Of a DNA stretch of 20,000 nucleotides, positions 3,269-19,816 are shown in pieces. The translations under genes were made by a program, and so were the position numbers. The notes under the pieces were generated by a model that saw nothing but the letters and a program-made list of their open reading frames with translations, ran no database searches and had not been told where the DNA came from. Position 1 is the stretch's first letter. Each line of letters starts with the position of its first letter. Source of the DNA: an uncultured virus (IMG/VR IMGVR_UViG_3300020214_001677) (Duplodnaviria; Heunggongvirae; Uroviricota; Caudoviricetes); the IMG/VR virus record IMGVR_UViG_3300020214_001677; one strand, given 5' to 3'.

Positions 3269-3361
3269 AATATGTTTTTTTCCTTTGTTATTTGTTGTTT
3301 GATATGATATGATGTATTGCTGAAGGAAAGTTCACTGCTGAACGATCCCCTATTTTGTATT

Positions 3362-3562
3362 TCAATCGCTTGATTCAGGAACGATTGGTGTGGACTTTTC
3401 GCCACCAGCCTGTTCCTTGTAACCAGCAACGAAGTCGTCTTTGGCCGTTACCAATGTTGACTTTGTCTTGCTGATCGCAGCCTTACCACCACTCTTGGTG
3501 GACTTGGCGAGGTTCTTTGTTTGGGCGGTTGTCTTGCCCAACAGTTTACCTAACTTACGCAT
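3362..3562 (-). CDS. Small Lys/Thr-rich hypothetical protein
   Basis: 66-aa ORF with RBS AAAGAGGT. Confidence 0.7.
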   Translation of the reverse strand: MRKLGKLLGKTTAQTKNLAKSTKSGGKAAISKTKSTLVTAKDDFVAGYKEQAGGEKSTPIVPESSD

Positions 3563-3585
3563 GACATTACCTCTTTCTTTTGTTG

Positions 3586-3657
3586 TTAGAATTCTTCGTA
3601 TGTTCCGAATATTGCATCCATTAGTTCAGTGATTAGATCGAACAACCAATCGAACAC
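3586..3657 (-). CDS. 23-aa acidic amphipathic peptide MFDWLFDLITELMDAIFGTYEEF
   Basis: GTG start preceded by a strong RBS AAGGGAGGTG, just downstream of the class B motif at 3680. Confidence 0.5.
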   Translation of the reverse strand: MFDWLFDLITELMDAIFGTYEEF

Positions 3658-3720
3658 GCATCACCTCCCTTCAATATGACCCCTATTTTCCTAGGAATTT
3701 TTAAAACAGGAAGGCTAGTG

Positions 3721-3816
3721 TTATTTTTTTCTATTGTCATTAGCCTTGGCCAATCCGACTAAGGCTATGATAATAAGATTTAGAATGATTGCCACGAATA
3801 TTCCCGGTAACAGCAT
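3721..3816 (-). CDS. 31-aa single-TM peptide MLLPGIFVAIILNLIIIALVGLAKANDNRKK
   Basis: TAATG stop/start coupling with the upstream ORF; one hydrophobic helix plus a charged tail. Confidence 0.6.
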   Translation of the reverse strand: MLLPGIFVAIILNLIIIALVGLAKANDNRKK

Positions 3817-3911
3817 TACGAGCTCTGCTTTCGCCGGAACTTGTATGCTGCACCAGAAATTAGGAATGCAATCGTGGTGACGATCAAACCAATTTTAGTG
3901 ATCGGTTTCAT
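3816..3911 (-). CDS. 31-aa single-TM peptide MKPITKIGLIVTTIAFLISGAAYKFRRKQSS
   Basis: ATGA overlap with the stop of 3908..4228; RBS GAGGAG; hydrophobic core and basic tail. Confidence 0.65.
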   Translation of the reverse strand: MKPITKIGLIVTTIAFLISGAAYKFRRKQSS

Positions 3912-4228
3912 GAGTACAACTCCTCTTTACGAACTTCACCCAGCATTTCGTACAAACCTGCACGATAGTTGTCCACAATGGCTTTTGCCTGTTCGAAATT
4001 CGCACAGGGCATCGTGTAGTCGAAGTGGTCTGACGAGTCACCAGTTGGTGATTGAACGGCGAACTCGATCTGGCTGAAAGAAGGGAACCTATCCAAGGTT
4101 TTGTACCACATCGCATTGAACGAAGTGATCATACCCTTGGGCATGGACTTTCCGTCTTTGCGGTAGACAAAGAACCCGTAGATACTGCTGCTATCGGTGT
4201 CGTACTGGTTTTCGTGGAATATGTACAT
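3908..4228 (-). CDS. Hypothetical 106-aa protein
   Basis: Translationally coupled at both ends (TAATG and ATGA). Confidence 0.75.
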   Translation of the reverse strand: MYIFHENQYDTDSSSIYGFFVYRKDGKSMPKGMITSFNAMWYKTLDRFPSFSQIEFAVQSPTGDSSDHFDYTMPCANFEQAKAIVDNYRAGLYEMLGEVRKEELYS

Positions 4229-4362
4229 TATTCACTCTCTTTCTTTTTGGCTTTGGGATTGTGTATACCGGGATTTGCTTTGCGGCGGGCAGAACGACGC
4301 TTGTTCTTTTCCTTCAAGCGTTCGGATTCCTTCCACCATTTGGTGTTTTCAGGGCTGGCCAT
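4228..4362 (-). CDS. 44-aa highly basic peptide MASPENTKWWKESERLKEKNKRRSARRKANPGIHNPKAKKKESE
   Basis: RBS AAGGAG; its stop overlaps the next start (TAATG at 4228). Confidence 0.6.
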   Translation of the reverse strand: MASPENTKWWKESERLKEKNKRRSARRKANPGIHNPKAKKKESE

Positions 4363-4555
4363 ACTTCATCTCCTTGTTCACATAGTGATCGTAGACGGAC
4401 TGCATTTCTTCGGTCTTGAAACCATCCTTGGTCCTTTTGCTTGGAACCTTGTCCTTGGTCACAAACAAACCGACGATGAACATTACCGAAAATGCGATGA
4501 CCATCCAGATTAGTTGAGCACGCATTACTGCTTTGGTTAACTTCCATGATGACAT
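4349..4555 (-). CDS. 68-aa protein with one TM segment
   Basis: Hydrophobic LIWMVIAFSVMFIVGLFV; TAATG coupling with the upstream ORF. Confidence 0.7.
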   Translation of the reverse strand: MSSWKLTKAVMRAQLIWMVIAFSVMFIVGLFVTKDKVPSKRTKDGFKTEEMQSVYDHYVNKEMKYGQP

Positions 4556-4728
4556 TACTTTACCCCTTTGTTGTTGAATATTTTCTTAGCCCACTGCCTA
4601 TCAGCATAGTGAGGATCAATTGCATCGATACGATCAAGTATCGTGTATTCAAGTTTGCTCAATTTGACGGATATGCGCCAACAAGCATTCTTTAATTTCC
4701 ACATTACTGGCAATAACAAATATTTCAT
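4555..4728 (-). CDS. 57-aa hypothetical protein MKYLLLPVMWKLK...FNNKGVK
   Basis: Starts 5 nt after the class B motif at 4734; stop coupled to the next start. Confidence 0.6.
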   Translation of the reverse strand: MKYLLLPVMWKLKNACWRISVKLSKLEYTILDRIDAIDPHYADRQWAKKIFNNKGVK

Positions 4729-4742
4729 AATTACCCCTATTT

Positions 4743-4964
4743 TTAGTGCGATTTTGGAATACCAAGTATATCCGCCCCGTCGTCCTCAATGATGGAAACC
4801 CAAACAATGCGGCACGAATCACAAACCCAGTGTTTGCGCGTGTCATCAATGATCAAGCGACAATCACGTACACTGCGTTCTTCAGTGAGTGTCAGTTGTT
4901 TTACTCTCATCGGAACATTGTGTATCGTGCACTCGGGCACCAAATCTGTCCATTCTTGCGTCAT
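4743..4964 (-). CDS. Small putative zinc-ribbon protein
   Basis: CTIH ... CDSC; directly downstream of the class B motif at 4973. Confidence 0.65.
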   Translation of the reverse strand: MTQEWTDLVPECTIHNVPMRVKQLTLTEERSVRDCRLIIDDTRKHWVCDSCRIVWVSIIEDDGADILGIPKSH

Positions 4965-5362
4965 GAAACACCCCCCTATTTTTCTAGTGTAAATTTTTAG
5001 AATTATAATCTAATAAAAAATTTTTTAAATAGCATACTATTGCACTTTGTGCCTTGGTATGCCAGCAAGGAGTTCCTGATGCTGCAATTACACCATTGAT
5101 GAATTTATGGGACATCAATCTCCCATTAGATGGCAACTAATTATAAGCGCCCTATCTGCTGCTTCGAAGATATCAACAGATTCCGACATCCTTTGGGACG
5201 GGCCAGCCCAGTTCACAATAAGTTTCGTTTATCCTGTACGGAACTTCCACTAAGGGGCCGACACAGAATAAACCCGGACAATCCAACCATTCTCCGCTAA
5301 CATCGGTTCTTCGCCCGATGGCATAACCCTGAAATGTGATTACGGTTGTTCAGGGAAACATC

Positions 5363-5569
5363 TTATACGTTATTGTCCTCCGGGATTGAGGAAGCTGCCA
5401 TCACATTGAAGAGATGGAACTCTTGTTCTGCACTTTGGTACTTGTCCCACTTGGAAGAAGGTGCGTTCTCAACGATGCTGACGATTTCCGCCAACACCTG
5501 AGACCTATCTCCCCGCTTGGGAATCATTACTTCAAACGGAATTACTGGATTCACTGATTGCTTAGGCAT
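5363..5569 (-). CDS. 68-aa hypothetical protein (start MPKQSVN)
   Basis: RBS GGAGG before the ATG at 5569; the longer 115-aa call would run through the class B motif and a long hairpin. Confidence 0.65.
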   Translation of the reverse strand: MPKQSVNPVIPFEVMIPKRGDRSQVLAEIVSIVENAPSSKWDKYQSAEQEFHLFNVMAASSIPEDNNV

Positions 5570-5722
5570 GATGCCCTCCATTGTTGACTTGGATACTACC
5601 CCTATTTTTTTTGTATTACCATTCAAGAACCCACACGAAAAGACAGCCCAGCCCGACGGTGAGAAGTGCGTAGCACCGCCGGACTGGGTGTCCCCAAGGA
5701 GGGTTAGCAAGAAATCATACGC

Positions 5723-5989
5723 CTAGTCCCGAAAGACTTGAAAACCCTGCAAGGGCTGTTGTTCGATTGCCCACATTGCGTCATAGCACTGTGGATGAAC
5801 ACCATTGATCATGAACTCACGCTCACCTGGTGTCTTGTCAGGAAAGACATGTTGAATGAACTGACCCATTACCTGCCAAGCATTCCACTGGGCAAGAGTA
5901 ATCTGGTACATACCTTCTGTCTTGCAATGAACACAGAAGTTGTGCACGACCACCACATCATCCTCGAATTCTACTTTTGTCGCTATCAC
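5723..5989 (-). CDS. 88-aa putative metal-binding phage protein
   Basis: CVHC ... IQHVFP ... EREFMING-HPQC pattern; GTG start with RBS GGGGAGGT. Confidence 0.75.
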   Translation of the reverse strand: MIATKVEFEDDVVVVHNFCVHCKTEGMYQITLAQWNAWQVMGQFIQHVFPDKTPGEREFMINGVHPQCYDAMWAIEQQPLQGFQVFRD

Positions 5990-6034
5990 GGGTTTACCTC
6001 CCCATTGTCGATTTGATGACTAGACCAATTTTTT

Positions 6035-6068
6035 TGTTGGCAGGGGGGCCGAAGCCCCCCCACCAACA
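6035..6068 (-). terminator. GC hairpin with UUCG loop after the SSB-like gene; followed by an A-tract rather than a U-tract
   Basis: Minus GGGGGGC-TTCG-GCCCCCC, extended by TGTTGG/CCAACA. Confidence 0.45.
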
Positions 6069-6083
6069 CATTCCGCCGTTCGG

Positions 6084-6596
6084 TCAGAACGGTGCGTCAC
6101 TGCTCTCAGCGACCACCACTGGCCGCGTCGGCTGCGACATCCGACTCTTCAGCGCTGCGAACGCTGCGTTGTCCATCTTCACCGCTGCTGGCCTGCTCCG
6201 CTGGTAGGTCTCAACCACGAAGTTCACGGGGTACACCGTGATTTGCGGGTGGACGCTGCCATCCTTGTAGGTCAACTCGGTGGTCTTCCCCAACACGATG
6301 TCGTCGCACAAGACGCGCAACACACCCTTCGGGTTGATTCCACCAGTCGCACTGCGAACCACTTCGTCCACATAGGACTTCAGGTTCACTGAGTGCTTGG
6401 CACCGTCCACTTCCACGGTCAACTGGTCATCTTCGTTGATTGCCCAGTTGTACGCGTTGACCTGACGGTCTTCCGCCGAAACGGCATCAAAGCCAACAGG
6501 CCCAACTAGCACCTGCCAGAATCGCTTGCCCGTCTCGGTGTTCACTCGCTCCTGCCAATCGTTGTTGGCATAGAGCGCCTTCAGTATCTGCTTCAT
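6084..6596 (-). CDS. 170-aa beta-rich protein with acidic tail ESSDAPF; possible ssDNA-binding protein
   Basis: RBS AAGGAG before MKQILK at 6596; low-complexity linker and an acidic-Pro-Phe C-terminus like bacterial SSB tips. Function is inferred. Confidence 0.6.
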   Translation of the reverse strand: MKQILKALYANNDWQERVNTETGKRFWQVLVGPVGFDAVSAEDRQVNAYNWAINEDDQLTVEVDGAKHSVNLKSYVDEVVRSATGGINPKGVLRVLCDDIVLGKTTELTYKDGSVHPQITVYPVNFVVETYQRSRPAAVKMDNAAFAALKSRMSQPTRPVVVAESSDAPF

Positions 6597-6854
6597 ATTG
6601 CTGCGGCTCCTTGACCGCTTTGCCACTTTCTTACGCAGGCAGTGACCGCCTGAAGAGGCTCGGGAATGAGCCCCTATTTTCAGAGTCAAACCCGTTCAGC
6701 AACGCCAAACGGGAAAAGACCCCTATTTTGCGCGTTAGACCCGTAGGAAGAGTCAACACGCAACAACCCAAGCCAGCCAAGCAACCAAGAGCCTAGCCAG
6801 CCAGAGAGACCTATTTAGAATACCCATAGGTATTCACAATCAATGAAGGGTTAA

Positions 6855-9497
6855 TTACCTCAGATTAGTCAGACCTTGGATCAACAGATCCATGACCGCC
6901 GGTTGTCCTTCCTGGCCATTCTGGAAGATGATCCGGTCACTGAGACCGTACTTGCCAGAGTTCAGGCTCGGATCCACGATGTACCGGTACAGCAGTACAG
7001 CCCACTTTTCTGGAGCTGTGTGTGAATTGATCCTGTTGTACAGGTCCGATTGAATATCGCCAATGTCCCTGCTGCGCTCGGTTTCGGCAAACATCTTGAG
7101 ATACTTGCTGTTGAACCCGAGTTTACCGGCCTTGGCCATTGAGGAGTGGTACTTTGCGTCTGCACGCTTGAGGCGCACATCAAACTCCTTGAAGAGTCCA
7201 CTTGCCCACTCGACATGTTCCGGCTTGACTATCGACAGTTTGTCCATGACCAACTGACGAGTTTCAGATTCCAGACGACGACCGAATGAAACTTCAACGA
7301 TCATCTTCTTGACTTGATCCAGGGTGTGCTTGTTCACATTGTCCATACGGGTGAATTTACCTTCCACCAGAATGTCCTCAAACGCCTCCTGATCTTGTTT
7401 CTCCATGCCAATCGACAGACGTGTCTTGAACACGAACTTGTCAACAGGAATCTGTTCGCGAATGATCTCGTTCACGATCAACTGCTGCATGTGCATCATT
7501 CCAAACTTCAGGTAGATGAAGGAATCGATGTCTGCCTCCTGTTGATTGGTGTCAATGACATCATTGCTGTTTGCCGGCAGCCACTCAGGATAGCTCACTC
7601 CCATGATTGCAGAGTAAGCCATGATCAAGTTGGCATACGTGCCCACGTTGGGATTCGCAAACTGTGCCCTGATCATCCGTTTGATGTTGTCTCGTGTGAT
7701 CATCCTGCTGGTGTACTCCACTGAATGAGGAATTTCTCCTCGCTCAGAGGTTTCCAACAGAGTCGACATGCCGAACGGAGCAGTGTTCAAGTCGATGACC
7801 GGAACCCGCTCGTCATTACGCCTGTGCCATGGCATGGTCTCTGCATCAAACCACTCAATGCTGTACCCACCTGGTCCGTTTGGTGAACGAATCACTACGC
7901 AGACGTCGATGGCTTCTTCCGGTGTCTCAGGCACAACCATGTTGACTGGCAGTACCGAATCCGAATACAGCTTCTCCAGTTTCTCTCGACCATACTGGCT
8001 GCACCAGATTTTGATCCAGATGAACTTGGCTTGATCACCGTCTTGATCCCATGTGTCATGCAACACAGCGGTATCAACGAACCTGTCGGTGGGGATTACC
8101 ACACCAACATTCTCCAGATAGAAGACACAATTGCGCTTCTCTTCCGGAAGGTCCATCATCGCCATGTGCTCCAAGGCAGCATAGGTATTGACGGTTGCCA
8201 TGAATGCATTGCTCATTGGCAGCCACCAACGGTTGTTGTCTCGTGCTGATTGCATCTGCATTTCTACAGAACCAATCGCCAGCCTGTTAAAGCAAGCAGA
8301 AGCAGACAGATCATTCCCTGCCTCAAGCCACCTGACAACAGCGGTCTTCCAACCAGCCACTACAGGTTCTTCGTGGTGCACACCAGCTTCGTCATGAGCA
8401 AACTTTACTTGGTGCAAGATGAAGTCCGGCACTTTGTTGTCTGCGAACGATTTGGTGATGTCATTCACCAACGATTCCGAATCCTGAACAAAGCGTTCCT
8501 CGGTGAACAACCAATCGTGATTGTGGAACGTGCTTTGCATATCCCACATCGCCGTGTGAATGTTCTCATGAATGAACGCCGTTGCCAGATAGTTGTTGCC
8601 ATCTGAATGGAACTCCGGTTTGATTGCACTGCTGTGGAAGATGACATCGTGAGACATCACCCTGTCAGGCCTGCACAAACCCAGACCCTTTACGAGTCCG
8701 TATGGAGTCCTCAGTCGGAAGATGAACCGGTCAATCTTGTTGCCCATGATCATTGCAATCATACGGCGCTTTTCATGACCTTCTTCCATCTTGTAGCACA
8801 TCTCCCGCAAGAAGCTCTGACTGACAATGATTGGTCCGTCGTACGGATTGCAGTTATTGCCATCAGGGCTCATCTCCAGGGTGACTTCTTCACGAGCAGC
8901 AGGCCAGTTACCCGGTCCGTGATCATGTTCAGCTTCTGGGATTTCATTGCTGGGGTCCACCAACATCAAGCAGCTCAGTTCGTCGAACTTACCAGACTTG
9001 TACATCTGGCATGAACGACCAACTTCTTGCAGTCGCTTTGGTGTCTTCTTTGCATCCAGTGCAATCATGTCCATTGCCTCGAGGCTGAAGATCTCACGAT
9101 CCATTCCATCGATGTAAAGGAAGAATGCATAGGTCGCATTTGCCCAAGCAAAAGTGGATCCATCAACCAACAGGTCGATATTGGTCCTCTTCAACTTGAT
9201 TTCATGCTTTAGGTCACTGATTGAGATTGAACCAAGTCGGAATGTGAATCCTCTTTTGTTCAACTTGCTCAACGCAGGGTAGATCCAGGTTCCATTGTGG
9301 ATTTCCATCAGGTAGTTGGAAATTGTCCTACCTTGTGGAGTCCGTGTCTGGACTTGGATTGGCTCTTTGGTATCCCTGAACAGTTCCAGAGCAGACTTTT
9401 CGTGTGCCCTGGGATTGTTGGTCAGGATTCGCCACTTTCCTGACAGGAATGCGATGATCGGGATTTCGCCCTTCACCGCTTGGTTGATTGCGCTCAT
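6855..9497 (-). CDS. Single-subunit two-barrel (DPBB) RNA polymerase, YonO/RdRP-like
   Basis: In order: KKTPKRLQ, YDGPIIVS (D220), FRLR..GLVKG (K270), VIFHSSAIK (K293), WDMQ, DQDGD (D484/486/488; nt 8034-8048), VVIRSPN (R537), VGTYAN, VIDTNQ. These match the recalled signature series of eukaryotic RdRP/YonO polymerases. RBS AAAGGA. Confidence 0.8.
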   Translation of the reverse strand: MSAINQAVKGEIPIIAFLSGKWRILTNNPRAHEKSALELFRDTKEPIQVQTRTPQGRTISNYLMEIHNGTWIYPALSKLNKRGFTFRLGSISISDLKHEIKLKRTNIDLLVDGSTFAWANATYAFFLYIDGMDREIFSLEAMDMIALDAKKTPKRLQEVGRSCQMYKSGKFDELSCLMLVDPSNEIPEAEHDHGPGNWPAAREEVTLEMSPDGNNCNPYDGPIIVSQSFLREMCYKMEEGHEKRRMIAMIMGNKIDRFIFRLRTPYGLVKGLGLCRPDRVMSHDVIFHSSAIKPEFHSDGNNYLATAFIHENIHTAMWDMQSTFHNHDWLFTEERFVQDSESLVNDITKSFADNKVPDFILHQVKFAHDEAGVHHEEPVVAGWKTAVVRWLEAGNDLSASACFNRLAIGSVEMQMQSARDNNRWWLPMSNAFMATVNTYAALEHMAMMDLPEEKRNCVFYLENVGVVIPTDRFVDTAVLHDTWDQDGDQAKFIWIKIWCSQYGREKLEKLYSDSVLPVNMVVPETPEEAIDVCVVIRSPNGPGGYSIEWFDAETMPWHRRNDERVPVIDLNTAPFGMSTLLETSERGEIPHSVEYTSRMITRDNIKRMIRAQFANPNVGTYANLIMAYSAIMGVSYPEWLPANSNDVIDTNQQEADIDSFIYLKFGMMHMQQLIVNEIIREQIPVDKFVFKTRLSIGMEKQDQEAFEDILVEGKFTRMDNVNKHTLDQVKKMIVEVSFGRRLESETRQLVMDKLSIVKPEHVEWASGLFKEFDVRLKRADAKYHSSMAKAGKLGFNSKYLKMFAETERSRDIGDIQSDLYNRINSHTAPEKWAVLLYRYIVDPSLNSGKYGLSDRIIFQNGQEGQPAVMDLLIQGLTNLR

Positions 9498-9559
9498 GAT
9501 GAGTTTCCTTTCTCTTGAGCTACTAGCGGCCTCAGAATAGAGACCTAAGTACTAGTCAT

Positions 9560-9582
9560 AAAGTAAAAGGGGCCGAAGCCCC
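9560..9582 (-). terminator. Rho-independent terminator
   Basis: Minus GGGGC-TTCG-GCCCC then TTTTACTTT. The same hairpin recurs at 15091-15104, 16915-16928, 17252-17265, 17723-17736 (one mismatch) and 18152-18165. Confidence 0.8.
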
Positions 9583-9957: not shown

Positions 9958-10052
9958 GTCATCCTCCTTGTATGGATGTACATTGCGTCATTTTTGATTT
10001 GGGAAACGACACTTCAACCCTGACTGATACTTGAAGTCTAAGTACTAGTCAT

Positions 10053-10080
10053 AAAGAAAAAGGGGCCCTTTTGGACCCCT
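10053..10080 (-). terminator. Rho-independent terminator
   Basis: Minus AGGGGTCC-AAAA-GGGCCCCT followed by TTTTCTTT. Confidence 0.7.
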
Positions 10081-10540: not shown

Positions 10541-10661
10541 GGGTTTTTCCTCCCCATTGTGATTTTGGTAGCCGGATGGCTAGCCATAAAAAATAAAGAC
10601 TAGTAATATAGTTAAATTTACTAGCCATATATAGATCCCTTATTACCAACCAATTAGCTGG

Positions 10662-11177
10662 TTAAAGCTTCTTGGTGGTGTCAACGATAAATGCAGGCTT
10701 GCCAACCTCCTTGGAGTAGGCAAAGCACTGAGCAGTACCGCGGGTAGTCGGGTTATACACCCAGAGAATGTCCGCATGGTCAACCATCCACTCATTGCGA
10801 TGGAAGTTGGCATGACGGCCATCAGGTCCATATATGCCATCGCATACATAGACAATGTCACCTGCCTTTGACAGGATGTCTTGTGCCTCAGTCATTCTGT
10901 TACGACCGAGCATGCTCTTCTTACCCCAGTAATACTCGATGTAACCCTTGTTGGGGATTGCCGCAATGAACGGTACATCAGCCAGGATTGCAGCACGCGC
11001 AAGTGCTTCATCAAAGCCTTCTGCCATTCCGCTGATGACAATCAACTTGTCACCATGCTTTTGCTTTTCCTTTGTCAGAAGGTCCGCAAGATAATCACGG
11101 ACCTCACGACGCTTGTCAACATCCAGAATCAGCTCACGAGAGCCAGTCCCAGCGATGTAGTAGCGGTTTGCTTTCAT
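10662..11177 (-). CDS. YspA-like SLOG-superfamily protein
   Basis: IAGTGSR, VISGMAEGFD, AAIP, RNEWMVDHAD and RGT...GKP are characteristic SLOG/YspA motifs. Confidence 0.85.
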   Translation of the reverse strand: MKANRYYIAGTGSRELILDVDKRREVRDYLADLLTKEKQKHGDKLIVISGMAEGFDEALARAAILADVPFIAAIPNKGYIEYYWGKKSMLGRNRMTEAQDILSKAGDIVYVCDGIYGPDGRHANFHRNEWMVDHADILWVYNPTTRGTAQCFAYSKEVGKPAFIVDTTKKL

Positions 11178-11303
11178 TGTTTTGGGCCCTCCTAAGACCC
11201 TTGACTAGGAAACCATATTCCTAGCCATAAAAAATAAAGGACTAATAATGTAGTTAAATATACTAGCAATGTATAAATCTCTTATTACCAACTAATTAGT
11301 TGG

Positions 11304-12881
11304 TTAATCTTGGTTGTTGTTGATCAATCTATTAATGAACGCTTGGGGGGCGCCAATAATCCAATTTTTGATAAATTTGCGTATGACAAGATTATCAGGT
11401 TCATTAAGAAGTGCATTGTGTTTGCCAAGAAGTTGGGTGATTCGACCCCATTTATTGTCTACTTTAACAATTTCTGCGTGACCAATCCATTTATTTGTTT
11501 CAATGTCCCTAAAGCCAACAATCAAACTGTGCTTTTCAAGAACTCTATCCGCATAACTACCAATGCAGTTGCTCTGAACCGAACCCCACTCAATTAGAGT
11601 GTAAGTATCATACGGGAGAACGCACTCAATCCTGTTCTCAATCCTTCGTCCATTCAACGCATCAACGTCTTCTGCATATTTAATCTTGCGATTTTCTTGT
11701 TTGATCTTATTGTACTCAAGGACAATGAAATTGTGGATTTCTTCAATACTGCCCCTGAATTCAAAGATGTTGTTTCTTACTGTTCGATTTCTGATTCCCC
11801 GAAGCATGCGTCCGCTATCAACCATTAGGCGAAGCAATGCATCAATAAGGGTAACACGACCTTCGGGCGTGACATGTCGTTGAACGACTTTGTCAAGATA
11901 TTCCAGTATCTCTTCTTGAATCTTAGGACGATTGAAGTACTTGAGGAAGTAATCCATATCTTTGAACATGTGCCTGATAGAAGGATAATTCAGGTATTCA
12001 ACATTCTGTCTGATTAGTTGGTCAATCTTTTCAAAGAAAGGTGCAGGGCAGCCCTTGAACAACTTCACAATATATGCTGCGTTCATCAATTCGTTCAACG
12101 TAGATATTCTGTGAAGGCCACCAAATGCATTTTTAGTCAGGCCGAGTTGTCCATCTTTTCCATAAATCTTATTTAAGATATCTTTAACGTTTGTTCCGTA
12201 AGACAAATTATTTATATCAAATTTGCTCAAACCCCAAACGTTATCGGAGAACATGAATAGAGAATGGTTCTCTCGCATGTCGTCAAGTGGCAAGTACTTT
12301 GCTATGGGAATGAACTTGTCAATCGAATAAATAGATTCGATTTCTTGGACTATATTGCGCCAAATGACATTTTCAAAACCATATAGATGACCCCCCAATA
12401 CTCCATCAACATTCCAACAAGGCTTTTTATTAACAAACCAAAGAAGCCTGACTCCGTTGTTGGTTTCGTTGATTGTGAGACAAATATTCTTTAGGTCTCT
12501 CACATAAGTCTTTACTTCAACCGTTTTTGCATTGCCCACCAAACGAAAGAACACAACCCATCCTTTATTGTTACTCTTTTTCTGCATTTTGGTGATTATG
12601 CCCATTGACTTATAGTCACGATAGTTCATAGATGCGTAACCCGTGTGAATTATTGGACTTTCACCAGATTTATCTACCTTTCTCATGATCATCGCCTCGC
12701 CTGATGGGTCCACAAAGCTTTCTGGGTACATAGCTTTGATGTTTGCCTTAAACTCTGAGAAATGAATTGCAGGCCCAAAGCTTACTGCTGTATTAACGTA
12801 ATCATAAACGAATTGCCGTACTCTTGCCATAGCTTCCACGGTTACTACCCCTTTCTTTTCCTCGTTGTTGTGAATTTTCAT
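11304..12881 (-). CDS. PcfJ-like domain protein (525 aa, start MKIHNN)
   Basis: C-terminal P...L.EWG..Q.NCIGSYADRV....LIVGFR...ITQLLGKHN. Start reassigned to 12881 because it follows the same leader and RBS (AGGAGG) as the 11177 and 17967 starts. Confidence 0.75.
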   Translation of the reverse strand: MKIHNNEEKKGVVTVEAMARVRQFVYDYVNTAVSFGPAIHFSEFKANIKAMYPESFVDPSGEAMIMRKVDKSGESPIIHTGYASMNYRDYKSMGIITKMQKKSNNKGWVVFFRLVGNAKTVEVKTYVRDLKNICLTINETNNGVRLLWFVNKKPCWNVDGVLGGHLYGFENVIWRNIVQEIESIYSIDKFIPIAKYLPLDDMRENHSLFMFSDNVWGLSKFDINNLSYGTNVKDILNKIYGKDGQLGLTKNAFGGLHRISTLNELMNAAYIVKLFKGCPAPFFEKIDQLIRQNVEYLNYPSIRHMFKDMDYFLKYFNRPKIQEEILEYLDKVVQRHVTPEGRVTLIDALLRLMVDSGRMLRGIRNRTVRNNIFEFRGSIEEIHNFIVLEYNKIKQENRKIKYAEDVDALNGRRIENRIECVLPYDTYTLIEWGSVQSNCIGSYADRVLEKHSLIVGFRDIETNKWIGHAEIVKVDNKWGRITQLLGKHNALLNEPDNLVIRKFIKNWIIGAPQAFINRLINNNQD

Positions 12882-12999
12882 TGTTTTGGGCCCTCCTAAG
12901 ACCCTTGACCAGGAAACCATATTCCTAGTCATAAAAAATAAAGGACTAATAATGTATTTAAATTTACTAGTCCTATATCAGTCGGCTAAAGAGTATTTA

Positions 13000-15030
13000 T
13001 TAGTTTTCCTTCTTTACCAGATTGTTCTTCATCCACCTGACGAGCTTGTCATGTAGATCTTGTTGTATGTCTCCACTCTTAGCTCGAAACTCTTGAATTT
13101 CAAGTTGTTTGCCGGAATCAAAGATTATGAACCTTGCATGTCCAATCCACTTACTCGTATTTACATCCTCAAAGCCAACGATGAATTGTTGTCTGGCGGC
13201 AACAGCGTCTGCCCAAGAAGTTCCGATGCAGTTGTTCTGTTGTGTACCCCACAGATAAAGATCATGCGTGGTCTTAGGAGCCCTGAAGATTACTCCATCA
13301 ATGATTTCTTTGCCATTGAACGAATTGATCAACCGCGTATTTGAAGTTTTCTTTGCCTCATTCGTGTATTTCATTGCTTCTTGGACTACGTAATCATGAG
13401 TTTGATCAAAGTCATACTTCTGCCTCTTTACTTGTTCAATAACCGCTTTTCTGCGATTTCCAACAGGAATTTTCTTCAATGAAGAAAGAGCGTCAGTAAC
13501 TTGATTCAATAGATGATAGATGGCATTCTGACGGTCAGAAACGTATACACGCCCATAATCCTGTCTGTCGTTTGGATCAATGAGAGCTTCCAGACTCTTT
13601 CTATCAGCTTCATCCCATGTAAAAGTCCGCAAGATTTGATTCTTGTATGCAGTTGTAGCACCAAAGATCTTGAGATACTTCTGCATGTTCTGTACATCTT
13701 GATAATAAGTATTCATACGCCTGCCGCCTGCTCTTGTTGGATATATTACATAATTCTGATCGCCCCCAAGTCTTTCAACCTTGTGTATTACAACTGGTGG
13801 CAGAACAAAATCAATCTTCATTTGTTCAAAGAAATTAGGTCCAAATGCTTTGAACATTCTGACCATTTGAATGGCCGAGCACAACTGGTGCCAATGCTTA
13901 AATTCTTGTTGTCCACCAAATGCTTTTCTTGTAATTCCAGAATTTTCTTTGATAGGAATCTCAAGGAAGATATACCGTGGTTCTTCTTTGCCCATTTTGT
14001 CTACAGGAGTACCAAAGGCATTATTCAATGCTTGGTGAATGTTTTTCGCACCAGATAAATAACGCAAATCATCTTGAGTTATTCCATGTAGTTGAATTGC
14101 CTCCATCCAGTTGTTTAAATATCTGTAATCATCTGGGAAAATTGCGCCAAATGACAGATTTTCACAAATTGGCAAGACGTCTGTCCTCTTGTATACCTTT
14201 TCTAGATAGCAATACGCGTCATTAACGGAACTCTGTAATTCACCCTGTAGAAACTTGATTTTCAATTGCCGAGAAAGAGATTGCCCCCACAGTGGTTTAA
14301 ATCCGTTCTTGTCGACTTTTGTGGTCAAGCAACGTACTCCAACCTTGGTTTCGTTGACAAAGATCATTTCTTTCATCGGTTTGAAAAAAGTCGTGCACGT
14401 TTTCCTGTGCTTCATTTTAATTCCCGCTGTTTCAAGTGCGTTCGCGAGTTTGACATAAAGGGAATCATAATCCCTGCTTTTTTCATCCGATATTGAATCA
14501 TAGTTGTTGTAGTAGGTCATACTTACAGAACAATGAATCGTCCATCCCTTGCCATTCTTTCTCTTGTTGAGATTAACTTCTAGGCCCCATATCCACTTAC
14601 CCCAGTCATGCTTGGTGTAAGCCCATTGTCCCAACATGTTCTTATCTACTTCACCGGTCTCAGCATTGACGATCATTCGTAGATAATACCGTGACTCTGG
14701 CCAAAGGTTCTTTCCAACTTCCGTTATCCCAAATTTCCGAAACCTGTACCCGCTCATCATGTTTTCTGCCTCACAAGCTTGAACTTGATCCCGGTTTTCA
14801 ATGTCGTTGAGTTTCGTAAGCCAATATTGAGCGAAACTTTCAGAGTTTGGGTTTAGCGCATTGTTGTTTTCGTCAACAATGATACCAACCTCTTTCATAT
14901 CGATCATGTTGATTTGACGCAGAATGTCAACTAACTGGTAGGTGTTCTTTGATTCCAGATTGTCTAGGTCAACTACGATCTCTTGAATCGAGTTGTCTTC
15001 GAGTCTGTTAATCCATTTTATTGCTTTCAT
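13000..15030 (-). CDS. PcfJ-like domain protein (676 aa), paralogue of the adjacent gene
   Basis: C-terminal APKTTHDLYLWGTQQNNCIG..WADAV...FIVGF...KWIGHA; shares G[LI]TxxAFGG and KWIGHA with 11304..12881. Confidence 0.75.
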   Translation of the reverse strand: MKAIKWINRLEDNSIQEIVVDLDNLESKNTYQLVDILRQINMIDMKEVGIIVDENNNALNPNSESFAQYWLTKLNDIENRDQVQACEAENMMSGYRFRKFGITEVGKNLWPESRYYLRMIVNAETGEVDKNMLGQWAYTKHDWGKWIWGLEVNLNKRKNGKGWTIHCSVSMTYYNNYDSISDEKSRDYDSLYVKLANALETAGIKMKHRKTCTTFFKPMKEMIFVNETKVGVRCLTTKVDKNGFKPLWGQSLSRQLKIKFLQGELQSSVNDAYCYLEKVYKRTDVLPICENLSFGAIFPDDYRYLNNWMEAIQLHGITQDDLRYLSGAKNIHQALNNAFGTPVDKMGKEEPRYIFLEIPIKENSGITRKAFGGQQEFKHWHQLCSAIQMVRMFKAFGPNFFEQMKIDFVLPPVVIHKVERLGGDQNYVIYPTRAGGRRMNTYYQDVQNMQKYLKIFGATTAYKNQILRTFTWDEADRKSLEALIDPNDRQDYGRVYVSDRQNAIYHLLNQVTDALSSLKKIPVGNRRKAVIEQVKRQKYDFDQTHDYVVQEAMKYTNEAKKTSNTRLINSFNGKEIIDGVIFRAPKTTHDLYLWGTQQNNCIGTSWADAVAARQQFIVGFEDVNTSKWIGHARFIIFDSGKQLEIQEFRAKSGDIQQDLHDKLVRWMKNNLVKKEN

Positions 15031-15081
15031 GGGTTTATCCTCCCCATTGTGATTTGATGACTAAGTCGGATGACTAGTCAT

Positions 15082-15104
15082 AAAGAAAGAGGGGCCGAAG
15101 CCCC
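15082..15104 (-). terminator. Rho-independent terminator
   Basis: Minus GGGGC-TTCG-GCCCC-TCTTTCTTT. Confidence 0.75.
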
Positions 15105-15137
15105 TCTCCCTTATTTCATGTGTGTGTGTGTTGGTTG

Positions 15138-15410
15138 TTATCGCTTGCCTTTTGGCTTGCTATTGCTTTTGCGTGGTGGTTCGCTGGAAAGAATGAATCT
15201 TCCTTCCTTTTGCCACCAGAGCATCGCTTCACCCAATGACTCGCACTTCCCGGCGAGGAGTGCGTCCTCGTGTGGGAAATACCAGTGCCTGACGAAGTGT
15301 GTACCTCGTCGCTTGTGGATTTTGTTTCCTTGACGATCATCCTTTTCCAGGCGTTCCTGCAAGAGAAACATCCTATCGAGGAAGTCGTCGTTTATTTCGT
15401 GTATTGTCAT
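15138..15410 (-). CDS. 90-aa hypothetical protein (start MTIHEIND) with basic tail
   Basis: RBS AGGAGGT before the ATG at 15410. Confidence 0.75.
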   Translation of the reverse strand: MTIHEINDDFLDRMFLLQERLEKDDRQGNKIHKRRGTHFVRHWYFPHEDALLAGKCESLGEAMLWWQKEGRFILSSEPPRKSNSKPKGKR

Positions 15411-15489
15411 GAGTACCTCCTGGTACTTGATTGACACATACACACACAAAAGCTAACGGTCTAAAACTACAGACCTAATTCCTAGCCAT

Positions 15490-15526
15490 AAAGAAAGAGG
15501 GTGGCCGGGTTTCCCGAACCACCCTC
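15490..15526 (-). terminator. Rho-independent terminator
   Basis: GAGGGTGG/CCACCCTC stem with an inner CGGG/CCCG pair, followed by TTTCTTT on the minus strand. Confidence 0.7.
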
Positions 15527-15543
15527 AGTCTTTATTTATTCAT

Positions 15544-16182: not shown

Positions 16183-16246
16183 TGTTGTGGGCCCTCCTTG
16201 GACCCTTGACTAGCGGTCACCTTTTGATGACCTAAAAACTAGTCAT

Positions 16247-16287
16247 AAAGAAAAAGGGTGGCCCCCCAGAGGGTAAGGGACCACCCT
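16247..16287 (-). terminator. Rho-independent terminator; near-duplicate at 19762-19801
   Basis: AGGGTGG...CCAGAGGGTAAGGG...CCACCCT followed by TTTTCTTT on the minus strand. Confidence 0.7.
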
Positions 16288-16332
16288 AATTCTCCTGTAG
16301 GTAGTTGGCTCGTGCCAATCAACTACTTACAT

Positions 16333-16803: not shown

Positions 16804-16983
16804 GATGGATACCCCCTTTCTCCCTTTCGGGAAATGTGCGACACTTGTTGATTAGGTGTGTCGCTCATACCTGGCACGATAACTAGAGACCTAAGTCCTA
16901 GTCATAAAGAAAAAGGGGCCGAAGCCCCTTCTTCTTCTCTTGGTCAGGCGACATGGTGATCGCCATCATGTGTCATGGAAGAA

Positions 16984-17187
16984 TTACTTCTTCCCTTTCG
17001 GCTTGCTGTTCTTGTGGAAGCGCCGCCAGTTACGGCGATACTCCCAAGGAGCACGCAGACCGTAGCCGTTCCTCGGATGAACGGCTTCCATCTGCGGCAG
17101 GTACTCAAGCGTGTTGATGTACCCGGCGCCAGTCAAGCCGCGCCGACGCTTTGGGTTCTGCGTGGTAGCCGACTTCTTCCGTGCCAT
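16984..17187 (-). CDS. 67-aa basic protein
   Basis: RBS AAAGGA; fills one repeat-bounded cassette. Confidence 0.7.
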   Translation of the reverse strand: MARKKSATTQNPKRRRGLTGAGYINTLEYLPQMEAVHPRNGYGLRAPWEYRRNWRRFHKNSKPKGKK

Positions 17188-17304
17188 TGGTTTTTCCTTT
17201 CTTGACTAGCGATCTCAGATTAGAGACCTAAAAACTAGCCATAAAGAAAAAGGGGCCGAAGCCCCTCTTCCTGTTGGCTGATCCCAACTCTTGGTAAAGT
17301 AGTA

Positions 17305-17529
17305 TCACTTACCTACTTTGTAGCTCGCTATCCATGACTTGATCTCATCAAGTAGCGTTATTACCTTGGCGGTCTTGTTGCCCTTACCATCAAAGGTGTA
17401 GACAACCGTACCTCTTCGGTAACGAAATTCCTGACGATATGCTTTCGCATCTCGCCTTTCGTTTCGCCACATGAGGAAATCAAATACGAGGCCTCTGTAA
17501 AAGCCTCGTACCTTATTCCAGTTGGACAT
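17305..17529 (-). CDS. 74-aa hypothetical protein (start MSNWNK)
   Basis: RBS AAGGAG; the longer 124-aa call would read through the non-coding repeat. Confidence 0.7.
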   Translation of the reverse strand: MSNWNKVRGFYRGLVFDFLMWRNERRDAKAYRQEFRYRRGTVVYTFDGKGNKTAKVITLLDEIKSWIASYKVGK

Positions 17530-17590
17530 TGCTTTCTTCTCCTTGCCTTTTACGGCGTTGGTTTTAGCTAGCCTAATGACTAACCATAAA

Positions 17591-17705
17591 AAAAAACTGG
17601 ATTTACTAGTTATGTACTCATCTCTGACAAAGAAGCGGAGAGGGGAGCCGAACGCATCCCCTCGCCTATGAAGAGCCAACCACCGGAAAGCAAGAAACCG
17701 GATGG
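17591..17705 (-). ncRNA. Structured non-coding repeat unit, copy 1 (candidate sRNA)
   Basis: Bounded by two class A cores; hairpins GAGGGGA/TCCCCTC and CCGG/CCGG; ends in a T-run on the minus strand. Confidence 0.55.
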
Positions 17706-17754
17706 CTAGCCATAAAGAAAAAGGGACCGAAGCCCCTCTTTCTTATCACCTGAA

Positions 17755-17967
17755 TTAGAGTTCAAATTTCTCTAGTTCAGTTTGCTTCCTTGCCAACAAG
17801 ATGCCAATCCTGCAGCACTCATCACAAACCCTACGAAATTCTTCGTCCACTTCATCGTTTCTTCCTCTTCCCTGACTATTCCAAAGAATCCGCTGCCTAC
17901 CCAGCATTTCTATCCATTGCAATCTGAGATCAAATTCTTCCTCAAATAAATCGAATAAGTCCTTCAT
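17755..17967 (-). CDS. 70-aa helical hypothetical protein
   Basis: Shared leader with RBS AGGAGG. Confidence 0.75.
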   Translation of the reverse strand: MKDLFDLFEEEFDLRLQWIEMLGRQRILWNSQGRGRNDEVDEEFRRVCDECCRIGILLARKQTELEKFEL

Positions 17968-18021
17968 TGTTCTGAGCCCTCCTAAGACCCTTAACTAAGA
18001 AACCATATTCCTAGTCATAAA

Positions 18022-18134
18022 AAAAACTGGATTTGCTAGTAATGTACTCATCTCGACAAAGAAGCGCAGAGGAGAGCCGAACGCATCTCCTCGCCTATGA
18101 AGAGCCAACCACCGGAAAGCAAGAAACCGGATGG
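18022..18134 (-). ncRNA. Structured non-coding repeat unit, copy 2
   Basis: As copy 1, with compensatory stem variant GAGGAGA/TCTCCTC. Confidence 0.55.
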
Positions 18135-18224
18135 CTAGCAATAAAGAAAAAGGGGCCGAAGCCCCTTCTTCTTCTCTTGGTCAGGCGGCAAGGTGACCGC
18201 CATCATGATCACAACGAAATTGGT

Positions 18225-18554
18225 TTATTCAACCAAATCGTCGATGGAATCTGAACTATTCAGCAACAAATAGTCCAAAGATTCCTTGGGTGGCGTTACT
18301 ACACCTCGGTAGACGCGGTCGACCCACGAAAACCTCATTGCAGTATCCAACTGGCCCCAGAGAATAACGCCTAGGTGGATCACTTTGTAGTAATCCCCGA
18401 CGGTTCGCTTGAGCTGCAAGGAGAGACCTTGTGGCGTGCAGGATGCCCACACACTTGTGTCGATCTCAACTTGCCAGTCTGGAAGCGTCTTGTTCACTTC
18501 CAGAACCAAGTCAGAAAGCCACTGCTTCATTTCCGGCTTGCTGTAGCCAGCCAT
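18225..18554 (-). CDS. 109-aa hypothetical protein
   Basis: RBS AAGGAG; fills one cassette. Confidence 0.8.
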   Translation of the reverse strand: MAGYSKPEMKQWLSDLVLEVNKTLPDWQVEIDTSVWASCTPQGLSLQLKRTVGDYYKVIHLGVILWGQLDTAMRFSWVDRVYRGVVTPPKESLDYLLLNSSDSIDDLVE

Positions 18555-18629
18555 GAGCAGCTCCTTCCCTCTACTATCTTTTAGGCGCAGTAGAGCTGCC
18601 TAGCCAGAGACCTTTACTCTAGCCATAAA

Positions 18630-18742
18630 AAAAAACTGGATTTACTAGTTATGTACTTATCCCTGACAAAGAAGCACGGAGGGGAGCCGAACGCATCCCC
18701 TCACAGAAGAGCCAACCACCCGGAAAGCAAGAAACCGGATGG
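18630..18742 (-). ncRNA. Structured non-coding repeat unit, copy 3
   Basis: As copy 1, with small indels outside the main stem. Confidence 0.55.
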
Positions 18743-18750
18743 CTAGCAAT

Positions 18751-18800
18751 AAAAAGAGAGGGTGCCTCAACGCCAGTGGTTAGTTGGCGTTGAAGCACCC
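18751..18800 (-). terminator. Long-stem Rho-independent terminator
   Basis: Minus GGGTGCTTCAACGCCA-N9-TGGCGTTGAGGCACCC followed by TCTCTTTTT. Confidence 0.75.
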
Positions 18801-18893
18801 CTTCGGTATGTTGCAGGCTGCTCTTTTATTGATCCTGCGCTTCGGGTCGCAAAACCAATTATTCAGCCCTTATTTAAGGGAAGGCAGCTGAGC

Positions 18894-19124
18894 TTAGCTC
18901 AGTGCGCGGTCAAATTCCGCAATGGCCATCATGAGATGCCGACAAGCCGAATCGACGACGCTTACGCGTTCATCGTATTGTGACTTGTAGATCACCTCAA
19001 CGAGGTTGTTGACCTCCACAGAAAGCCTCGCCAGTTCCATGACAGCGTCACGAACCCCGGCAAAGGTTTCCTGTAAGGCTTGCGGAAACCGCTCTGGGTG
19101 AGTACCCAAAACGTCACCTCTCAC
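18894..19124 (-). CDS. 76-aa helical hypothetical protein
   Basis: GTG start overlapping the end of the upstream ORF; start position uncertain. Confidence 0.65.
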   Translation of the reverse strand: MRGDVLGTHPERFPQALQETFAGVRDAVMELARLSVEVNNLVEVIYKSQYDERVSVVDSACRHLMMAIAEFDRALS

Positions 19125-19395
19125 CGAGTTCCCGAATTACGCGTTGGTTGCGGTTTTGAACCGCCCAATGCATGGAATGGTCGATACACCAGTCCAGCTT
19201 TGAGCAGATCTCATCAGCAAGCTTCGCGTACTCGTACTCGCTAGCCTCGTGCATCTGGAAACTCTGTGCACGGAAGTAAGACTGCATCTCGCGAAGCAGC
19301 TTCGTCCATGCAACAGGAGCCTCTTCGATAACACGCGCTTGGCGGTTCGAGTTCGGATCCTCGTTGGAGGCGAAGACCTCAATGTTGTTAAACAT
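19114..19395 (-). CDS. 93-aa hypothetical protein (start MFNNIEVF)
   Basis: RBS AAGGGAG before the ATG at 19395. Confidence 0.7.
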   Translation of the reverse strand: MFNNIEVFASNEDPNSNRQARVIEEAPVAWTKLLREMQSYFRAQSFQMHEASEYEYAKLADEICSKLDWCIDHSMHWAVQNRNQRVIRELGER

Positions 19396-19816
19396 TGAAT
19401 CTTCTCCCTTCTGTCCTTTCGGACAGTTGTGGGCGCAATATAACACGCCCTATATCCAGGTCGTTTCTCACAAGATTAGGTATCCTGTGCCTTCCGCTTG
19501 GATAGAAGCGCCAGGTGTCAAATCTTCATTAACTCCAGCAATAAACCTTCCTTACGAAATTTCAACCACATCTTCTCCAGCACGTTTGGCAGAAGTAGGG
19601 CGAAACCTCAAGTAAGGTATTGCCTTTATTAACGAAGCACCTAGCAGGCATTCCCTACACACAGGGATCGTGCCCGCATCCTCGCGAGCTGTGCTCAGCA
19701 AGGTATGCACTTCGACGGGGGCAGCCCGCCTTCGCTGGCTAGGAACCTTTATCCTAGCAATAAAGAAAAAGGGATGGCCCCCAGAGGGTAAGGGCCATCC
19801 CCCAATCTTTTATTAG

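Follow-up and report, generated by a model that had tools for sequence, protein, structure and literature searches.

How does a large phage order the expression of its genes when the gene of its own polymerase lies exactly between two dissimilar sets of start-like signals? The question is raised by a stretch of 20,000 nucleotides, hereafter the window, of the uncultured virus IMGVR_UViG_3300020214_001677 (Caudoviricetes), in which an open reading frame (ORF) of 880 aa, RNAP1, separates copies of the word TTTATKRCTAG (class A) from copies of AAAATAGGGG (class B). The two signals probably belong to a stepwise expression programme run by a pair of phage polymerases. The joint reading favoured here, to which I give a probability of about 60%, is that class B is the promoter of RNAP1, that class A is a cassette served by a reader other than RNAP1, and that the rest of the genome is expressed from host-type signals; the reading of class B by RNAP1 is its best-supported part. 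An earlier note, made from the letters of the window, had proposed a cascade of two polymerases, one of them injected with the virion: the polymerase, the motif switch, a class B that tracks the RNAP1 lineage and a second polymerase were all found, whereas a virion enzyme, a class A that is a promoter and nothing else, and class A copies in the relative G008 were not.

The motif switch at the RNAP1 gene

The long ORFs of the window are all on the minus strand, as is every exact copy of both motifs. By word search class A has 16 exact copies between 9552 and 19764, against 0.04 expected by chance, and class B has seven between 3347 and 6729, against 0.07 expected; in none of 200 shuffles of the window did class A reach 16 or class B seven. 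Class B is absent upstream of the 880-aa ORF and exact class A copies are absent downstream, so that the gene splits the two sets exactly. The class B count and placement are those given in the earlier note, which had also placed the class A block correctly, up to the RNAP1 gene, with a count of 17 copies; the seventeenth is probably one of four minus-strand copies with one mismatch (at 17580, 19535, 10600 and 10621). The features in question are the following, class A copies without further remark resting on the word search.

9552..9562, minus strand: class A copy right before RNAP1, with 55 nt between the motif end and the ATG, preceded by a GGGGCTTCGGCCCC hairpin and a T-run
10045..10055, minus strand: class A copy
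10580..10590, minus strand: class A copy with an AT-rich hairpin upstream
11221..11231, minus strand: class A copy; a 9-bp stem, GGCUAGGAA/UUCCUAGUC, begins at the G
12925..12935, minus strand: class A copy
15074..15084, minus strand: class A copy
15482..15492, minus strand: class A copy
16239..16249, minus strand: class A copy with an outer stem and an inner hairpin
16898..16908, minus strand: class A copy
17235..17245, minus strand: class A copy
17591..17716, minus strand: class A copy (17706-17716) and ORF-less unit of about 125 nt, the end of which is the one-mismatch copy 17580-17590; repeat families D6 and D10
18011..18021, minus strand: class A copy
18022..18145, minus strand: class A copy (18135-18145) and second ORF-less unit of about 125 nt, by word and repeat search
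18619..18629, minus strand: class A copy
18630..18753, minus strand: class A copy (18743-18753) and third ORF-less unit of about 125 nt, by word and repeat search
19754..19764, minus strand: class A copy, the most upstream in the window
6855..9497, minus strand: RNAP1, 880 aa, with a predicted polymerase fold and an HDxWDxDGD loop
6720..6729, minus strand: class B copy right past the RNAP1 stop, first of a tandem pair 49 nt apart, with ACGGGTCT upstream
6671..6680, minus strand: class B copy, second of the tandem pair, by word search
5599..5608, minus strand: class B copy, with a Shine-Dalgarno sequence and ATG about 30 nt on
4973..4982, minus strand: class B copy, 8 nt before the ATG of a 73-aa ORF
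4734..4743, minus strand: class B copy, 5 nt before the ATG of a 57-aa ORF
3680..3689, minus strand: class B copy preceding a conserved gene encoding ..FDWLFDLI..; relatives have their own B variant at the orthologous site
3347..3356, minus strand: class B copy about 80 nt before a conserved 345-aa gene (2231-3268)

A complete IMG/VR record of 209,701 bp, G002, whose RNAP1 is 98% identical, served as a stand-in for the genome of the window; three IMG/VR contigs, G002 included, carry the 880-aa protein at that identity. In G002 all 16 class A copies are on the plus strand and confined to 136,936-148,784, all eight class B copies are on the plus strand and confined to 151,607-159,647, and the RNAP1 gene (148,839-151,478) stands between them; an exact word search of the complete genome found neither motif beyond its own block. 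The switch is therefore genome-wide, and it recurs in distant relatives. Along the same line, the main over-represented words in an intergenic 8-mer survey of G002 are class A, class B and the terminator stem GGGGCTTCGGCCCC.

RNAP1 itself has no match among the families of Pfam, PHROGs and NCBIfam, nor by tblastn in 50,697 phage records, and its profile returned noise only against PDB sequences. Its relatives (56 word-indexed, 96 clusters at 50% identity) are named 'hypothetical protein' at most, save for one label of an N-terminal NADAR domain. The AlphaFold2 model (predicted local distance difference test score 85.8, predicted template-modelling score 0.85) matched QDE-1 (E 2.8e-7) and RDR2 (E 4.7e-7) in a Foldseek search of the PDB; 21 PDB matches have E of at most 0.001 and, among the matches listed, all are QDE-1 or RDR2. 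Next come P74 gp62 (E 1.7e-3) and P32 gp64 (E 1.1e-2), then crAss phi14:2 gp66 and P23-45 gp96. VIA-align, which is independent of Foldseek, agrees with this ranking (RDR2 Z 11.2 over 601 residues, QDE-1 9.2, P74 gp62 9.0, P23-45 gp96 7.6). The loop HDxWDxDGD, residues 480-488, holds the metal-binding Asp triad DxDGD, and H480, D481, D484, D486, G487 and D488 are unchanged in 23 of 23 aligned sequences. By its model, RNAP1 is thus a single-chain RNA polymerase with two double-psi beta-barrels, of the QDE-1/RDR2/P74-gp62 type (the QDE-1/YonO branch), although it belongs to none of these families at the level of sequence; the earlier note had called it a polymerase, and the predicted fold and the loop bear this out.

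Class B, the RNAP1 lineages and the paralog RNAP2

Class B always starts just past the RNAP1 gene and, at orthologous sites, varies with the RNAP1 lineage; for these reasons it is most likely the promoter of RNAP1. The variants in relatives of the window, several of which carry the copies in the interval between RNAP1 and a second polymerase gene, RNAP2 (see below), are these (identities are to the RNAP1 of the window):

G005 (RNAP1 43% identical): AAAAGGGGGG, 7 copies, all in the RNAP1-RNAP2 interval, none elsewhere in the 169-kb contig
G010 and G007 (RNAP1 36-37%): AAAATAGGGG, 8 of 10 and 8 of 9 copies in the RNAP1-RNAP2 interval
G008 and G009 (RNAP1 34%): GGAATAAGTCGG (AATAAGTSGG), 4 of 4 copies in each at most 3.3 kb past RNAP1, in genomes of 205 and 216 kb
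G011: GGAATAAGTGGGG, loci L023 and L024
G015: CATACAAA, 7 copies between an RNAP1-like gene and RNAP2, a tentative variant

A case in point concerns the ..FDWLFDLI.. gene, which in five lineages has the B variant of its own lineage in front of it, namely AAAATAGGGG in the window (at 3680), AAAAGGGGGG in L004, AAAATAGGGGA in L029 and GGAATAAGTCGG in G008 and G009. The tandem pair directly past the RNAP1 stop, 49 nt apart in the window, is found with a spacing of 52-53 nt in L004, L029 and L019, and L023 likewise has two copies past that stop. All variants but the tentative CATACAAA end in a G run; they lie 5-80 nt from start codons and have no terminator before them. G008 and G009, whose RNAP1 proteins are 70% identical, have one variant in common, and that of G011 is nearest to theirs; the RNAP1 of G011 groups with theirs too (49-53% identity, against 34-38% to others), whereas its RNAP2 does not. 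In the proposed programme RNAP1 would recognise class B, start within the G run and transcribe a conserved block, 8-10 kb long, with the RNAP2 gene at its end.

RNAP2 was found by a profile of RNAP1 relatives (861 aa; G002 160,174-162,759, which is L014:174-2759); its alignment to the RNAP1 profile covers residues 42-680 and has a probability of 99%. Profile homology makes it a putative paralogous polymerase, and the second polymerase foreseen in the earlier note has thereby a candidate. In place of DxDGD it carries HGGxDxDD, unchanged in 22 of 22 sequences. Its family, with more than 250 relatives, most of them more than 50% identical, is larger and better conserved than that of RNAP1. By alignment of the window to G002, the gene lies outside the window, about 2 kb past position 1. 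In G002 the last class B copy (159,638) is followed by a 137-aa gene and then by RNAP2; since it is encoded behind the last class B copy, RNAP2 would, by gene order, be made in the class B step and not precede it. The order RNAP1, 7-10 kb, RNAP2 is repeated in G005, G008, G009, G010 and G011; in G013, G014 and G015 the gene found upstream of RNAP2, at a distance of about 15-16 kb, is RNAP1-like but far more diverged.

The injected polymerase that the earlier note placed elsewhere in the genome did not turn up in the virion module of G002: queries with 270 family members recovered RNAP1 and RNAP2 only among the G002 proteins, with no third paralog, and the loop DxD[GIASD]D occurs, among the 47 ORFs of at least 400 aa, in RNAP1 and one 404-aa protein only, this being a search of loops and families and not of the folds of large virion proteins.

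Two further observations touch the polymerases. Arrays of GAATGAATCA, of 6-27 copies, adjoin the RNAP2 gene in many lineages (G002 at about 164.3-164.6 kb; L065-L068, L071 and L078/79; G013 at 71.8-72.3 kb, with a spacing of about 37 nt); they resemble iterons and may mark a replication origin, where RNAP2 may have a role. Moreover, a 171-aa gene of the class A block (10662-11177) is homologous to a domain fused to the RNAP1-family proteins P0107 and P0123, the former also with a PIF1 helicase domain, and the N-terminal extension of P0051, P0052 and P0056 has a homologue in a 177-aa gene after RNAP2 (G002 163,758-164,291); these fusions suggest that the two gene products are polymerase partners.

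The class A cassette and its reader

As the earlier note had it, class A is a genuine motif, but it is more than a promoter word. Judged from 50 copies in five lineages (window 16, L004 12, L019 8, L025 7, L029 7), it is a composite cassette made of a terminator-like hairpin, a T-run, the word TTTATG and a sense-strand stem-loop that begins at the G of that word. A hairpin whose 3' arm ends at most 16 nt from the motif precedes 47 of the 50 copies. The position matrix is T-rich from -7 to -1, reads TTTATG.[CG]TAG and conserves AGGTCTC at positions 16-22, that is 12-18 nt past the G; it contains no -35/-10 geometry. When RNA is taken from the G, at least five of the bases +1 to +6 pair with a downstream arm in 42 copies, compared with 325 of 1500 random starts and 256 of 1000 shuffles, and when TTTAT is included in the fold the first paired base falls at -2 to +2, again in 42. 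The stem, which begins at the presumed start, has about 9 bp and a loop of 5-6 nt, with loop lengths varying between copies. Its pairs vary compensatorily (at +2 GC 16, AU 16, GU 4 and CG 4; at +3 CG 29, GC 8 and GU 3), and the GGTAG form of class A pairs with CTAYC. In 43 of 50 copies the fold of the sense strand is the more stable of the two (mean -15.2 kcal/mol, antisense -10.5; Wilcoxon p 4e-8), a bias which argues that the stem is selected in the transcript; the RNA would therefore include the left arm, with its 5' end at or just before the G, or through read-through of the terminator. A further measure, the unpaired state of the TTTAT linker in long folds, was dropped: only 6 of 50 linkers stay free of pairing along their whole length, since the T-run pairs with A-tracts that precede the terminators.

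Three units of about 125 nt between 17.6 and 18.75 kb have a class A cassette at both ends and contain two hairpins but no ORF. Small RNAs and empty cassettes are both conceivable; an Rfam search of the window gave a tRNA only and no match for these units.

As to its distribution, TTTATGRCTAG stands upstream of RNAP1 in G005 and G009, and TTTATGGGTAG in G010, G007, G013 and G015; the RNAP1 of such class A-bearing relatives is 34-44% identical to that of the window, or detectable by profile only. From the last copy to the RNAP1 start codon there are 51-55 nt (55 in the window, 51-52 in G013 and G015). The genes within the block are far less constant: between the window and G002 the content of the class A block differs, whereas the class B block is 86-100% identical, and the class A-block genes of the window have no homologue in G008, in which the class B-block genes do have them. 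Class A is, on these comparisons, a marker of a hypervariable accessory gene block. Beyond the clade of the window, the composite word TTTATGRCTAG-N5-AGGTC gave 67 scattered single matches in 596 Gb of prokaryote genomes (185,579 species), none of them multi-copy, and its 32 viral matches are multi-copy in contigs of this clade only; a collection scan with the looser word TTTTYTTTATGRCTAG returned, among the matches listed, scattered single AT-rich matches. In G002 a single TTTATGGGTAG occurs at 130,782 on the minus strand, opposite to and outside the block, with a matrix-scan score of 21.1.

Each class A cassette would thus be the place where one transcript ends and the next begins at the G, so that the messenger RNA gains a protective 5' hairpin; the cassettes would insulate the hypervariable accessory early genes from one another and finally deliver the RNAP1 gene. 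The reader, by this proposal not RNAP1, would be conserved across the phage clade, which leaves RNAP2 or the host enzyme with a conserved factor, and most of the remaining 190 kb or so would depend on host-type -10 boxes. The idea of a candidate reader protein shared by the genomes with class A and missing from G008 was rejected. Only tail-fibre-like genes and the class A-block cassettes (PcfJ-like, 63-71-aa proteins) differ in this way; and PcfJ-like genes are present in G011, which has no class A, and were not found in the L019 and L029 loci, which have it.

Several results weigh against the favoured reading. G008, which is 97% complete, lacks class A by word search and matrix scan and keeps both RNAP1 and RNAP2, the latter 88% identical to that of G009; neither polymerase therefore needs class A, and RNAP2 is weakened as its reader. 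The polymerase activity of RNAP1 is deduced from a predicted fold and a motif, and the 24 sequencing runs that contain this DNA are all lake-water metagenomes, with no RNA run among them. The earlier attribution of class B to the 880-aa enzyme finds the expected lineage-wise variation at orthologous sites, yet the window shares its class B word with L019 and L029 at 36-37% identity of RNAP1, and with G010 at 37%, and differs from L004 at 43%, so that the co-variation is not strictly tree-like; in addition, two of the ten class B copies of G010 lie past RNAP2. As regards class A, the stem stands out only moderately when counted in a fixed register (276 canonical cells of 450; slid registers give 145-214), and the RNA 3' end of one cassette would be within a few nt of the next 5' end, a pattern that RNA cleavage would leave as well.

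The choice of a class A reader is where the alternatives part. The cascade of the earlier note, in which an injected virion polymerase reads class A, possible but with the odds against it, has as one form a packaged RNAP2, in a loop from RNAP2 through class A to RNAP1, and through class B back to RNAP2. It agrees with a class A that is not sigma-70-like and drives RNAP1 directly, that resembles RNAP2 (47-69% identity), and not the diverging RNAP1, in its conservation, and whose multi-copy form is confined to phages of the clade; the G+C content (GC) of 46-50% common to the class A and B blocks, against 35-38% elsewhere, together with the precedent of P23-45 in the relevant part of PMC10770324, points the same way. 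RNAP2 as reader has the conserved paralog, the clade-specific cassette and the shared GC on its side, and G008, with its RNAP2 and no class A, against it. No third polymerase was found in G002 by family queries or by loop search of its ORFs of at least 400 aa, the RNAP2 gene lies outside the structural module, and the CTAG and GGTAG forms of class A do not track the identity matrix of RNAP2. An elaboration that I regard as unlikely is a mutual-activation circuit: RNAP2, virion-borne or first made from a host-type promoter, would stop at the T-run and restart a few nt on at the G of TTTATG, the last cassette would yield RNAP1 and, through class B, RNAP2 again, and each accessory gene would have its own hairpin-capped messenger. 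The stop-restart step recalls, by analogy, the gene-junction logic of non-segmented negative-strand RNA viruses; if true, the circuit would be a sigma-free, two-enzyme programme of feed-forward and feedback in a large clade of uncultured lake phages. Rather doubtful, too, is a reading of class A by the host RNA polymerase, with a host sigma or a phage sigma like those of extracytoplasmic function (ECF), class B alone being phage-dependent in the manner of T7. In G008 the RNAP1 gene belongs to a tight operon with host-type -10 boxes in front, and in G011 likewise to an operon with such boxes, so host-driven expression of RNAP1 does exist in the clade; intrinsic terminators suit a bacterial enzyme, and the phage (G002) encodes a sigma-70/ECF-like protein. 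The cassette, however, has no -10/-35 geometry, is quite unlike the host-type boxes elsewhere in the genome, and has no multi-copy counterpart in the 185,579 species genomes or in other viral contigs.

Class A might also owe its form to events after transcription. RNase III cuts the early messengers of T7 and leaves hairpin ends of this kind; class A could similarly be a junction of RNA processing and insulation, cut in the U-rich linker UUUUUCUUUAU between the hairpins, with a 3' and a 5' hairpin protecting the resulting messengers. In favour of this, 11-12 nt of single-stranded, U-rich linker are enclosed by two hairpins, the sense-strand bias places the selection in RNA, a 3' end and a 5' end are predicted side by side, the cassette has no sigma-70-like box, and G008 manages without it. 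The upstream hairpin and T-run, on the other hand, form a textbook intrinsic terminator, which would halt a bacterial-type enzyme first; the exact 11-mer and AGGTCTC are kept across deep lineages, which points to a sequence-specific protein reader; and the ORF-less units of about 125 nt are simpler to see as start-stop units, so that processing seems an unlikely account. Least probable by far is that RNAP1 alone reads both classes through a common WWAGG core. Class A does have a conserved (T/A)nAGGTC 5 nt past CTAG, resembling ATAGGGGT, and the CTAG-N5-TAGGGG likeness pointed out in the earlier note is there, with CTAG just upstream, in two of the seven class B copies. Class B, however, shifts between lineages and class A does not; the left arm of class A is selected in the sense strand and hence transcribed, which puts the start upstream of AGG; and RNAP1 would be needed before its own class A-driven gene is read.

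Known systems and the rest of the phage

The system closest to the one proposed here is that of Thermus phage P23-45, a cascade of a virion polymerase, gp96, and a non-virion one, gp64, whose relatives without the virion enzyme lack the first motif too (both from the sections of PMC10770324 on transcription of these phages). As far as those sections go, the two systems have in common a pair of paralogous two-barrel polymerases, two dissimilar motif classes in separate territories, a first class that spans a run of small genes, the next polymerase's among them, conserved terminator motifs in this first territory, late transcription by the host enzyme and relatives without the first motif. They differ in that G002 has no tape-measure-fused or other virion polymerase that could be found, has instead a second paralog with a DxDD loop downstream of the class B block, and has a first-class motif fused to a terminator and a 5' stem-loop; the motifs are likened here by layout and not by sequence. 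The phage of the window is, moreover, a myovirus of about 210 kb, and P23-45 a siphovirus. With YonO of the Bacillus prophage SPbeta, QDE-1 and RDR2, RNAP1 shares, on the accounts consulted in part, one chain of about 100 kDa, two double-psi beta-barrels, DxDGD and no known sigma-like partner; it differs in having no sequence-level match to known families. YonO reads one late operon, whereas 4-10 sites follow the RNAP1 gene here; its promoter was still undetermined in 2017, by the relevant portion of PMC5467207. A 2021 survey of jumbo phages has, in its portion on such enzymes, YonO-like proteins in two group 3 phages only (PMC7824862).

For the cassette, the closest analogue is PeSL of T4-type phages, a composite of terminator and promoter in which host sigma-70 early promoters are used (PMC4122927; PMC2839356, in their portions on these elements). 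In both cases small units of a stem-loop and a start lie between the variable genes of a hyperplastic region, and here as well their content varies between close relatives; class A differs from PeSL, as there portrayed, in having no host sigma-70 boxes. The placing of class B recalls another system. In phages of the T7 type, host-read early genes are followed by the polymerase gene and, right after it, by tandem phage promoters; likewise, two tandem copies of the presumed promoter come immediately past RNAP1, and the motif ends in a G run. The polymerase is here of the two-barrel type and not Pol I-like, and the motif, of about 10 nt, is much shorter. Promoters of the N4 type are short DNA hairpins of the template strand upstream of the start, whereas the class A stem is of the sense strand (43 of 50) and begins at the presumed start.

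A search of PMC and bioRxiv found no description of these lake phages or of their motifs, and in the literature searched P23-45, with two RNAPs structurally related to this branch, is the only phage with two such enzymes tied to two motifs. To my knowledge, no promoter has so far been defined for the YonO/QDE-1-like branch of single-chain two-barrel enzymes; the present clade offers short candidates, of about 10 nt. At orthologous sites they form a natural series, AAAATAGGGG, AAAAGGGGGG, GGAATAAGTCGG, GGAATAAGTGGGG and possibly CATACAAA, each with a diverged polymerase, that is a ready-made system for specificity swaps and a possible source of orthogonal transcription parts. The clade also offers a more widespread paralog with an unusual DxDD loop, and a compact cassette of terminator, start and 5' hairpin as an insulator of hypervariable early genes.

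The phage is an uncultured lake-water myophage of about 210 kb. On the minus strand, at 1-132 kb, G002 encodes DNA polymerase, a DnaB-like helicase, primase, ribonucleotide reductase and thymidylate synthase, as well as tail sheath, baseplate, portal, major head protein and large terminase; on the plus strand, from about 133 to 204 kb, the polymerase module is followed by a helicase, tRNAs, a WhiB-like regulator, a single-stranded DNA-binding protein and lysis genes. The host is probably an actinobacterium, because of WhiB, of leaderless-type starts (TATAAT-N7-ATG) and of a tRNA with a 96% match to an Actinomycetia phage. The polymerase module has a GC of 45-50%, against 35-38% in most of the genome (window 1-20000; G002 136-164 kb; G009 52-68 kb). 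The other features of the window are:

11304..15030, minus strand: two PcfJ-like accessory genes of 542 and 676 aa (PF14284, E 1e-8 and 9e-7), variable among relatives
10662..11177, minus strand: 171-aa gene in the class A block (phrog_289), with a homologue fused to RNAP1-family proteins of other phages
1298..1327, minus strand: host-type promoter-like TTGCAT-N18-TATAGT (TATAGT at 1298-1303), preceding a conserved 76-aa gene
450..523, minus strand: tRNA-Arg (TCT), by tRNA and Rfam search

At the promoter that the earlier note had placed near 1300, the TATAGT box and a weak TTGCAT are present, but a consensus sigma-70 scan of the window did not list the site; that scan gave 29 sites against 28.9 expected, hence no signal, with no class A site among the 29. 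Outside both blocks, intergenic TATAAT-like boxes occur, several of them 7-8 nt before the start codon, and a sigma-70/ECF-like protein is encoded at G002 5107-5589; these boxes and this gene make host-core transcription of most genes likely. In G002, G008 and G009 many structural and late genes have a co-oriented TTACTAT[AT] 16-56 nt upstream, which is a candidate -10 box of late promoters. In the three genomes 15 of 53, 21 of 54 and 23 of 46 occurrences of TTACTAT are intergenic, within 6-8% of the genome, a 4-6 fold enrichment, and 11-14 per genome lie at most 60 nt upstream of a co-oriented start codon.

The accessory early block also holds, besides the two PcfJ-like proteins, a NikA-like protein of 55 aa (19817-19984, minus strand), both families being otherwise known from conjugative plasmids. 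Another repeated junction is seen in G002 at 135,705 and 136,303, where a hairpin CCCCTG..CAGGGG is followed by CATTGTGGTGTRAGAGACCACGATCTGAAGAGCCATCT, between the first genes of the GC-rich island and upstream of the first class A copy. Finally, where the minus- and plus-strand gene blocks diverge, an AT-rich stretch and then (GGGGTA)3-like repeats are kept in three genomes (G002 132,600-132,760; G008 at about 148.6 kb; G009 at about 47.1 kb); the site may serve as origin, terminus or packaging signal.

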